From NCBI GenBank assembly GCA_001661245.1, contig KV454016.1, positions 990,268 through 1,054,267 on the forward strand: DNA of 64,000 bases. The letters run 5' to 3'. A program made the position numbers and the translations under genes. Of the stretch, positions 44,703-46,281 are shown in pieces. The DNA comes from Pachysolen tannophilus NRRL Y-2460. Its lineage: Eukaryota. Under the pieces are notes generated by a model, which saw nothing but the letters and a program-made list of their open reading frames with translations, searched no databases and had not been told where the DNA came from. Every line of letters starts with the position of its first letter. The first letter of the stretch is position 1.

Positions 44703-46281
44703 ATGGTGAGTATAAGCTATTATGAATCTAAGAATGTTTTTTGTATTCATTTCTTTTTTTTTTTGCTTCTTTTTATTGATGGTTTTAATATTATTTTGTT
44801 CTAGTATATTAACTTAATTGAAAAATTTTTTCTTTTTGTTATTATAGTCGATTACTACTTCGAATCCGAATAAAGAGCTTCAAGGCTTTTCATTGATTGC
44901 TCTGCACTCCCATATATCTGGTTTAGGTCTTGATGATAATTTACAACCAAGGGAGAATTCCCAAGGAATGGTGGGACAATTGAAGGCACGTAAAGCAGCT
45001 GGTGTAATATTAAAAATGATTCAACTGGGGAAGATTGCAGGAAGAGCGATTTTAATTGCTGGTCCGCCATCTACTGGTAAGACTGCTATTGCCATGGGTA
45101 TGGCTCAATCTTTAGGATCTGATGTTCCATTTACTGCAATTGCAGGATCTGAAATATTTTCATTGGAGATGAGTAAAACTGAAGCTTTAACTCAAGCTTT
45201 TAGAAAATCTATTGGTATTAGAATAAAAGAAGAAACAGAATTGATTGAAGGTGAAGTTGTTGAAATTCAAATAGATAGATCAATAACTGGAGGTCATAAG
45301 CAAGGGAAATTAACCATTAAGACTACAGATATGGAAACCATATATGAATTGGGTAATAAAATGATTGAAGGTTTACAAAAGGAAAAAGTTATTGCTGGTG
45401 ATATTATATCAATTGATAAAGCTAGTGGAAAGATTACTAAATTGGGTAGATCTTATACTAGAGCAAGAGATTATGATGCAATGGGACCTGATACAAAATT
45501 TGTTCAATGTCCAGAAGGTGAATTACAAAAAAGAAAAGAAGTTGTTCATACTGTTTCACTTCATGAAATTGATGTTATTAATTCAAGATCACAAGGTTTT
45601 TTGGCTTTATTTAGTGGTGATACTGGTGAAATTAGATCTGAAGTTAGAGATCAAATTAATACAAAAGTTGCTGAATGGAGAGAAGAAGGTAAAGCTGAAA
45701 TTTCACCAGGTGTTTTATTTATAGATGAAGCTCATATGTTAGATATTGAATGTTTTTCTTATATTAATAGAGCTTTAGAAGATGAATTTTCTCCTATTGT
45801 TATAATGGCTACAAATAGAGGAATTTCTAAAACTAGAGGAACAAATTATAAATCACCTCATGGATTACCAATGGATTTACTTGATCGTTCAATTATTATT
45901 ACCACTGGTTCATATAATGAAGAAGAAATGAAACAAATATTATCTATTAGAGCACAAGAAGAAGAAGTTGAATTAAATGCAGATGCATTACTGTTATTAA
46001 CAAAGATAGCTCATGATACTAGTTTAAGGTATGCTTCAAATTTGATTAGTGTTTCAAATCAAATTGCTTTAAAGAGAAGATCGAATATTGTTGAATTAGA
46101 AGATATTAAAAAATCTTATATTTTATTCTTGGATAGTGATAGATCTGTTCAGTTTTTAGAAGCAAATAGTGATCAGTATATAGACGATGAGGGAAACGTT
46201 ACATTTGGTGCAAAGGAAGAAGAAGATGCAGTTAATAATAACAATAATAACAATGGTGAAACAATGGATACTTCTGTCTAG
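44703..46281 (+). CDS. RVB2: RuvB-like AAA+ helicase Rvb2; exon1 is only ATG (44703-44705), intron 44706-44847
   Basis: [17 protein letters not shown] Walker A, FIDEAH; GTGAGT donor, TATTAAC branch, TAG acceptor give MSITTSNPN. Confidence 0.95.

Follow-up and report, generated by a model that had tools for sequence, protein, structure and literature searches.

The window, which is the whole stretch of 64,000 nucleotides analyzed here, very probably comes from the nuclear genome of a budding yeast that belongs to the CUG-Ala clade (family Pachysolenaceae of the order Alaninales), in which CUG is read as alanine according to NCBI translation table 26. The assignment of CTG to alanine is supported by four independent lines of sequence comparison, namely the residues that homologues carry at CTG codons, the public table-26 proteins of the same DNA, the placement of the lineage, and the leucines that the nearest relatives display at conserved alanine positions. 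The observation is confirmed, its interpretation is supported, and the case is already known and adds no new biology. Publication of the reassignment dates to 2016 (PMC4937558), and its extension to the clade to 2018 (PMC5951914).

The GC content of the window ranges from 22 to 34% in 4 kb bins. Approximately 29 open reading frames (ORFs) have a clear Pfam identity, including GAPDH, VIP1, UTP21, RVB2, TOM40, ERG2, PFK, a FAL1/eIF4A3-like DEAD-box helicase, and others. Three runs of N, which are masked or unresolved, lie at 11923-12320 (398 bases), 29588-30215 (628 bases), and 41950-42228 (279 bases); low-complexity sequence of the poly-A/T or (TA)n-like type borders them, and the first of them breaks the 5' part of a long GH63-like ORF. 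Two genes are split over two overlapping frames, PRS (ribose-phosphate pyrophosphokinase; 2-1449, + strand) and the gene for a UAA-family nucleotide-sugar transporter (39053-40263, − strand), probably due to short introns or frameshifts. The middle part of PRS is a low-complexity insert with three CTG codons.

CTG is present in 20 of the 29 Pfam-supported ORFs, amounting to 57 codons or 4.9 per 1000. In these ORFs, which lie in DNA of ∼28% GC, CTG (57) is more frequent than CTA (36), GCG (27), and CTC (15). The excess of CTG is not expected of a rare leucine codon that ends in G, and is consistent with selection acting on this codon in its own right.

The case for a non-standard code was made in the first-pass annotation from three in-frame CTG codons in RVB2, a gene on the forward strand. 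The first exon of RVB2 consists of the start codon only (44703..44705) and is directly followed by GTGAGT (ATGGTGAGTA); an intron of 142 nt of the form GTGAGT...TAG (44706..44847) separates it from the second exon (44848..46281, TAG stop included), which encodes the TIP49 AAA+ ATPase by Pfam. The splice is implied by the spliced translation, since methionine followed by exon 2 in table 26 is identical to a public protein of 478 aa, P0001. Identification of the gene relies on the TIP49 P-loop domain (E 7.8e-163) and the TIP49_C domain (E 7.7e-20) of Pfam, and 7901 homologues are found at E<=1e-30, the best named match being that of Kuraishia capsulata with 87% identity. The three codons are located at 44902..44904 (LIA[CTG]HSH), 45025..45027 (MIQ[CTG]GKIAGR), and 45991..45993 (DAL[CTG]LLTK), all on the + strand, with positions and contexts as first described. 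They correspond to residues 20, 61, and 383 of the 478-aa protein, and to 19, 60, and 382 in the site numbering used below. Contigs from three sequencing runs and two studies, X1 and X3 from one sample and X5 from another study, show no differing letter over 44779-46286 or more, and the RVB2 CTG codons are therefore not assembly errors.

The residues found in homologues at these codons were tabulated in 119 sequences, which are the 120 matches minus the window's own protein, out of the 7901 at E<=1e-30. At each of the three sites, alanine outnumbers every other residue. At site 1, the column consists of A 95, S 18, T 3, and three gaps; at site 2, of A 61, N 37, S 7, H 4, E 3, Q 3, L 2, and D 1; and at site 3, of A 61, D 31, N 11, E 9, S 2, Q 2, R 1, and M 1. 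Leucine is found 0, 2, and 0 times among the eight commonest residues listed per site, and Kuraishia capsulata, a yeast with the standard code, has alanine at each of the three. The first-pass annotation had singled out the first site as the strongest, which holds with alanine in 95 of the 119 homologues versus 61 of the 119 at each of the others. Its view that alanine fits the second and third sites also stands; the weight it gave them was too low, as alanine is the commonest residue there too.

Besides RVB2, the column scoring covers three genes identified by Pfam: VIP1, an inositol pyrophosphate kinase with seven CTG codons (1949..5389, − strand; its table-26 translation is P0121), UTP21 with five (5899..8793, + strand; table-26 translation P0241), and the last exon of the v-SNARE VTI1 with three (15917..16465, − strand; 148 homologues). 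The alignments contain 120 matches each for RVB2, VIP1, and UTP21, and 150 representatives for VTI1. Among the 18 CTG codons of the four genes, 13 lie in columns with an occupancy of at least 70% and were scored, while VIP1 106, 898, 910, and 1066 and UTP21 20 (5 of 15 sites) were dropped with an occupancy below 70%. UTP21 site 763 is another column rich in alanine, with A 89 and S 2 among 119 homologues. The three CTG columns of VTI1 have a polar character, with leucine in at most 3 of the 148 homologues. The VTI1 ORF itself spans 15917-16498 (− strand); the V-SNARE N-terminal profile is matched only from position 34 and homologues align from about their residue 38, because both matches start late, the ORF probably lacks a short exon further upstream.

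The scoring used one empirical profile per amino acid, derived from all other codons in these alignments, a total of 2554 sites. The 13 CTG sites score best as alanine (−40.0), followed by serine (−43.2) and asparagine (−43.8), with leucine at −57.9, which upholds the earlier claim that leucine and serine fit worse than alanine. The margin of alanine over serine is only 3.2 log units over the 13 sites, a small sample taken from four analyst-chosen genes of the ∼29 recognizable ones. When the sites are bootstrapped, alanine is the best amino acid in 1637 of 2000 replicates, followed by asparagine (185), serine (94), methionine (55), glutamine (27), glutamate (1), and leucine (1); methionine, glutamine, and glutamate together account for 83 of the 2000. 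As a calibration, random sets of 13 codons that truly encode alanine, leucine, or serine are called correctly 1000, 1000, and 999 times out of 1000, respectively.

The comparison with other codons points in the same direction. A leucine reading of CTG is rejected, because leucine is the top residue in 202 of the 240 columns of the other five leucine codons versus 2 of the 13 CTG columns; alanine is preferred over serine by a modest margin. On average, hydrophobic residues make up 0.93 of the column for the other leucine codons, 0.22 for CTG, and 0.09 for the GCN codons of alanine. Alanine is the top residue at 4 of the 13 CTG sites versus 90 of the 128 GCN codons.

Eight further CTG sites were compared by eye with homologues of solved structure, which have V, I, V/R, E, Q, C, R, and A/K at these positions, such that leucine is present at none of the eight sites and alanine at one; solved structures were in general a poor source of columns, and the five alignments listed for the DEAD-box helicase are all to one human protein. 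Two CTG sites in LRO1 were left uncounted, LCAT being too distant for a confident alignment. CTG codons in ORFs with no Pfam match and in the tail of the TOM40 ORF, where the coding status is uncertain, were kept out of the tabulation. The TOM40 ORF (58783-60186, + strand) continues for ∼115 codons beyond the porin domain, which ends at residue 353 of 468. This tail looks non-coding, as well as hydrophobic and repetitive, and contains two CTG codons; the true stop or a 3' intron of TOM40 may lie earlier.

A different type of evidence is provided by the homologues themselves. In columns with at least 80% alanine, leucine is confined to two of the 360 rows aligned, P0109 and P0242. The RVB2 sequence P0109 (88-89% identity) has leucine at 3 of 23 conserved-alanine columns, and the UTP21 sequence P0242 (about 62-64% identity) at 1 of 14. 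Among the matches listed, P0109 is the most similar RVB2 and P0242 the closest UTP21; the latter lies on the same 11.5 kb contig as P0122 (75% identity), the closest VIP1. The closest kin of the window thus share the signature of CTG as alanine and were evidently translated with the standard code. In each of the three homologue sets, with 120 rows apiece, some rows have leucine in conserved-serine columns (13, 17, and 12, respectively). Such a signal is expected when proteins of CUG-Ser yeasts are translated in the standard code, and its presence indicates that the conserved-column test detects mistranslated codes.

Placement of the window among yeasts relies on a maximum likelihood tree of VIP1 and UTP21, which is limited to these two genes (16 taxa, 1950 columns, LG+G4). 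The window pairs with the relative that is the source of P0122 and P0242 (SH-aLRT 100), and this pair groups with Komagataella, Kuraishia, Ogataea, Candida arabinofermentans, and Brettanomyces (SH-aLRT 83), separate from the CUG-Ser1 species (SH-aLRT 100). The phylogenetic placement that had been proposed as a check accordingly puts the window next to the Pichiales (Leu2) and outside the Serinales (Ser1). The placement supports the reading of CTG as alanine, because the published Ala clade lies in this region of the tree (PMC5951914). In the NCBI taxonomy, the Ala clade is the order Alaninales with the family Pachysolenaceae; no named Alaninales sequence is among the homologue matches listed, and membership of the clade rests on the tree position and the public annotation. 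The relatives from which P0109 and the pair P0122/P0242 originate may belong to Nakazawaea or Peterozyma.

VIP1 and UTP21 are also divergent neighbors, at 1949-8793 of the window. Homologues of the two genes are found on contigs of equal size in six pairs (P0122/P0242, P0124/P0326, P0125/P0253, P0127/P0341, P0131/P0320, and P0195/P0357), the hosts being the P0122/P0242 relative, Ogataea philodendri, C. arabinofermentans, Kuraishia, Brettanomyces naardenensis, and Lachancea meyersii. The locus tags of the two homologues are close in three of those hosts, and the gene pair seems to be conserved.

The public protein collection contains the window's own RVB2 (P0001), VIP1 (P0121), and UTP21 (P0241), each as the sole member of its cluster, and all three are encoded by a contig of 1,128,252 bp. 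Translation of the window with table 26 reproduces the three proteins letter for letter, and the public copies have alanine at all 15 CTG codons of these genes; when translations of the window are compared, tables 1 and 12 fail to reproduce P0001, P0121, and P0241. The identity of the public proteins under table 26 reflects an assumption made by the depositors and not the behavior of the ribosome. Riley et al. in 2016 reportedly described the nuclear code of Pachysolen tannophilus, which is NCBI translation table 26. Since the public annotation already treats CTG as alanine, the question of novelty is settled. The first-pass annotation had matched the window to the known CUG-Ala yeasts and table 26, and regarded the reassignment as known biology if the genome came from that clade; the columns, the public proteins, and the tree agree with the match, and the conditional resolves to the known case.

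Some of the CTG codons occupy columns that are poor in alanine. VIP1 565 has L 97 and A 13 among 119 homologues, with Komagataella and Kuraishia included in the alanine rows, and VIP1 847 has M 108, K 6, and R 5 of 119 and no alanine; both are well-aligned hydrophobic columns in which leucine would be the conservative choice. The column at UTP21 399 is mixed (L 33, P 27, V 19, and A 15 in 119 homologues), and sites 85 and 226 of the DEAD-box helicase and 141 of PFK, three of the eight sites read from solved structures, have V or I. Overall, the mean frequency of the top residue is 0.53 in CTG columns versus 0.75 in the columns of GCN alanine codons.

The origin of such positions can be considered in terms of the distance between codons. 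CTG is one change away from codons of leucine, methionine, valine, proline, glutamine, and arginine, and two from every GCN codon. New CTG codons for alanine should therefore arise at tolerant positions that encoded one of these six residues. The share of these six among the non-alanine letters is 0.45 in CTG columns versus 0.30 in GCN columns, and a share of 0.45 is reached in 353 of 10,000 random GCN subsets. The enriched CTG sites are in VIP1 (3697 and 2851), UTP21 (7093 and 6526), and VTI1 (16213). The pattern of columns suggests that many of the CTG codons for alanine are recent one-step changes at tolerant positions and not old alanine codons.

The poorly fitting columns are where the standard code finds its support. 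If CTG encoded leucine, the alanine-rich columns of RVB2 would have to be chance replacements of alanine by leucine; VIP1 565 (L 97/119) and VIP1 847 (M 108/119) would suit leucine, as would the V or I at DEAD-box 85 and 226 and PFK 141. That CTG encodes leucine is nevertheless extremely unlikely given its score of −57.9 versus −40.0 for alanine, its single win in 2000 bootstraps, and the 2 of 13 CTG columns topped by leucine versus 202 of 240 for the other leucine codons. Moreover, among the homologues aligned only P0109 has leucine at any of the 23 conserved-alanine columns of RVB2, yet the window would have it too, and the public proteins of this contig have alanine. Translation as serine, known from CUG-Ser1 yeasts (Candida, table 12) and CUG-Ser2 yeasts (Ascoidea/Saccharomycopsis), is the closer competitor in the scoring: it ranks second (−43.2), serine is the top residue at 2 of the 13 sites (VIP1 478 and VTI1 79), and 18 of the 119 homologues have serine at RVB2 site 1. 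However, alanine beats serine at the four sites with the highest conservation, namely RVB2 19, 60, and 382 and UTP21 763, and serine wins only 94 of the 2000 bootstraps. The window lies outside the CUG-Ser1 group (SH-aLRT 100), table 12 fails to give the public proteins, and none of the window's CTG codons is at a conserved-serine column, where mistranslated homologues from the Ser clade show leucine. A serine code in the window is exceedingly improbable in view of these results.

The remaining alternatives retain alanine as the main product of CTG. In an ambiguous code, CTG would be translated mostly as alanine with a relevant share of leucine, for example through wobble decoding by tRNA-Leu(UAG). 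This would explain the presence of CTG codons at leucine, methionine, and valine columns; CTG columns are more hydrophobic than GCN columns (0.22 and 0.09), leucine or methionine is the top residue at 3 of the 13 sites, and a precedent exists in the dual serine/leucine decoding of Ascoidea asiatica (PMC6041473). Such ambiguity is highly unlikely, however, when set against the proteomics of Pachysolen, in which alanine is found at 97.2% of 907 fully supported positions and the decoding is called unambiguous (PMC4937558), and against the simpler account of one-step mutation to alanine codons at tolerant positions (0.45 versus 0.30). It is also very unlikely that the window departs from a purely alanine code in the sense that the CTG codons at VIP1 847 and 565 and DEAD-box 85 and 226 are tolerated through residual leucine, or that it comes from an undescribed member of the Ala clade. 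Partial decoding as leucine, if true, would be the second natural case of dual decoding of a sense codon.

For the preferred reading of CUG as alanine, the mechanism can be drawn from the literature. CUG would be read by a tRNA-Ala in which mutation has turned the anticodon into CAG and which would carry the alanine identity set (G3:U70, A73, and a short variable arm); the tRNA-Leu(CAG) of the ancestor would have been lost. No tRNA gene is detected by ARAGORN in the 64-kb window, and no Rfam family is matched in it either. According to Muhlhausen et al. 2016 (PMC4937558), CUG is translated as alanine in Pachysolen tannophilus on the basis of LC-MS/MS, with the figure of 97.2% at 907 fully supported positions noted above, and the tRNA(CAG) has G3:U70 and A73. 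The same study counts 16,824 CUG codons, with at least one CUG in 80% of the genes, and places the codons mainly at conserved alanine positions. In Krassowski et al. 2018 (PMC5951914), the Ala clade comprises Pachysolen, Nakazawaea, and Peterozyma, the latter two being added by these authors, and splits deeply from the Leu2 Pichiaceae, described as "a deep division within the family Pichiaceae".

The reassignment has practical consequences for sequence analysis. Translations of ORFs from this genome with the standard or bacterial table have a wrong leucine at every CTG, and table 26 is needed. Public protein sets are affected too: the nearest relatives show leucine at conserved-alanine columns, and many Candida-type proteins show leucine at conserved-serine columns.

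Comparison with known systems places the window closest to the alanine-translating yeasts. In the CUG-Ser1 yeasts (Candida albicans, table 12), as in the reading proposed here, CUG was taken from leucine by a tRNA with a mutated anticodon, and it occurs rarely, for the most part at positions that are newly created. In contrast, the amino acid there is serine, and the window falls outside the CUG-Ser1 clade, with no CTG codon at a conserved-serine column. Nakazawaea and Peterozyma share the same reassignment and the same phylogenetic neighborhood (PMC5951914); unlike them, the window has its proteins in public on a contig of 1.13 Mb, spliced and annotated with table 26, which points to a fully annotated genome and not to a draft. 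Pachysolen tannophilus differs from the window in none of the features compared, and the window most probably comes from this species or a very close relative, as suggested by a genome annotated in table 26, with splicing, on megabase contigs. As in this species, the DNA of the window is AT-rich, with a GC content of 22–34%, CTG fits alanine, and table 26, as opposed to tables 1 and 12, gives the public proteins. The codon is likewise rare but widespread, occurring in 20 of the 29 ORFs of the window versus 80% of the genes of Pachysolen tannophilus (PMC4937558).
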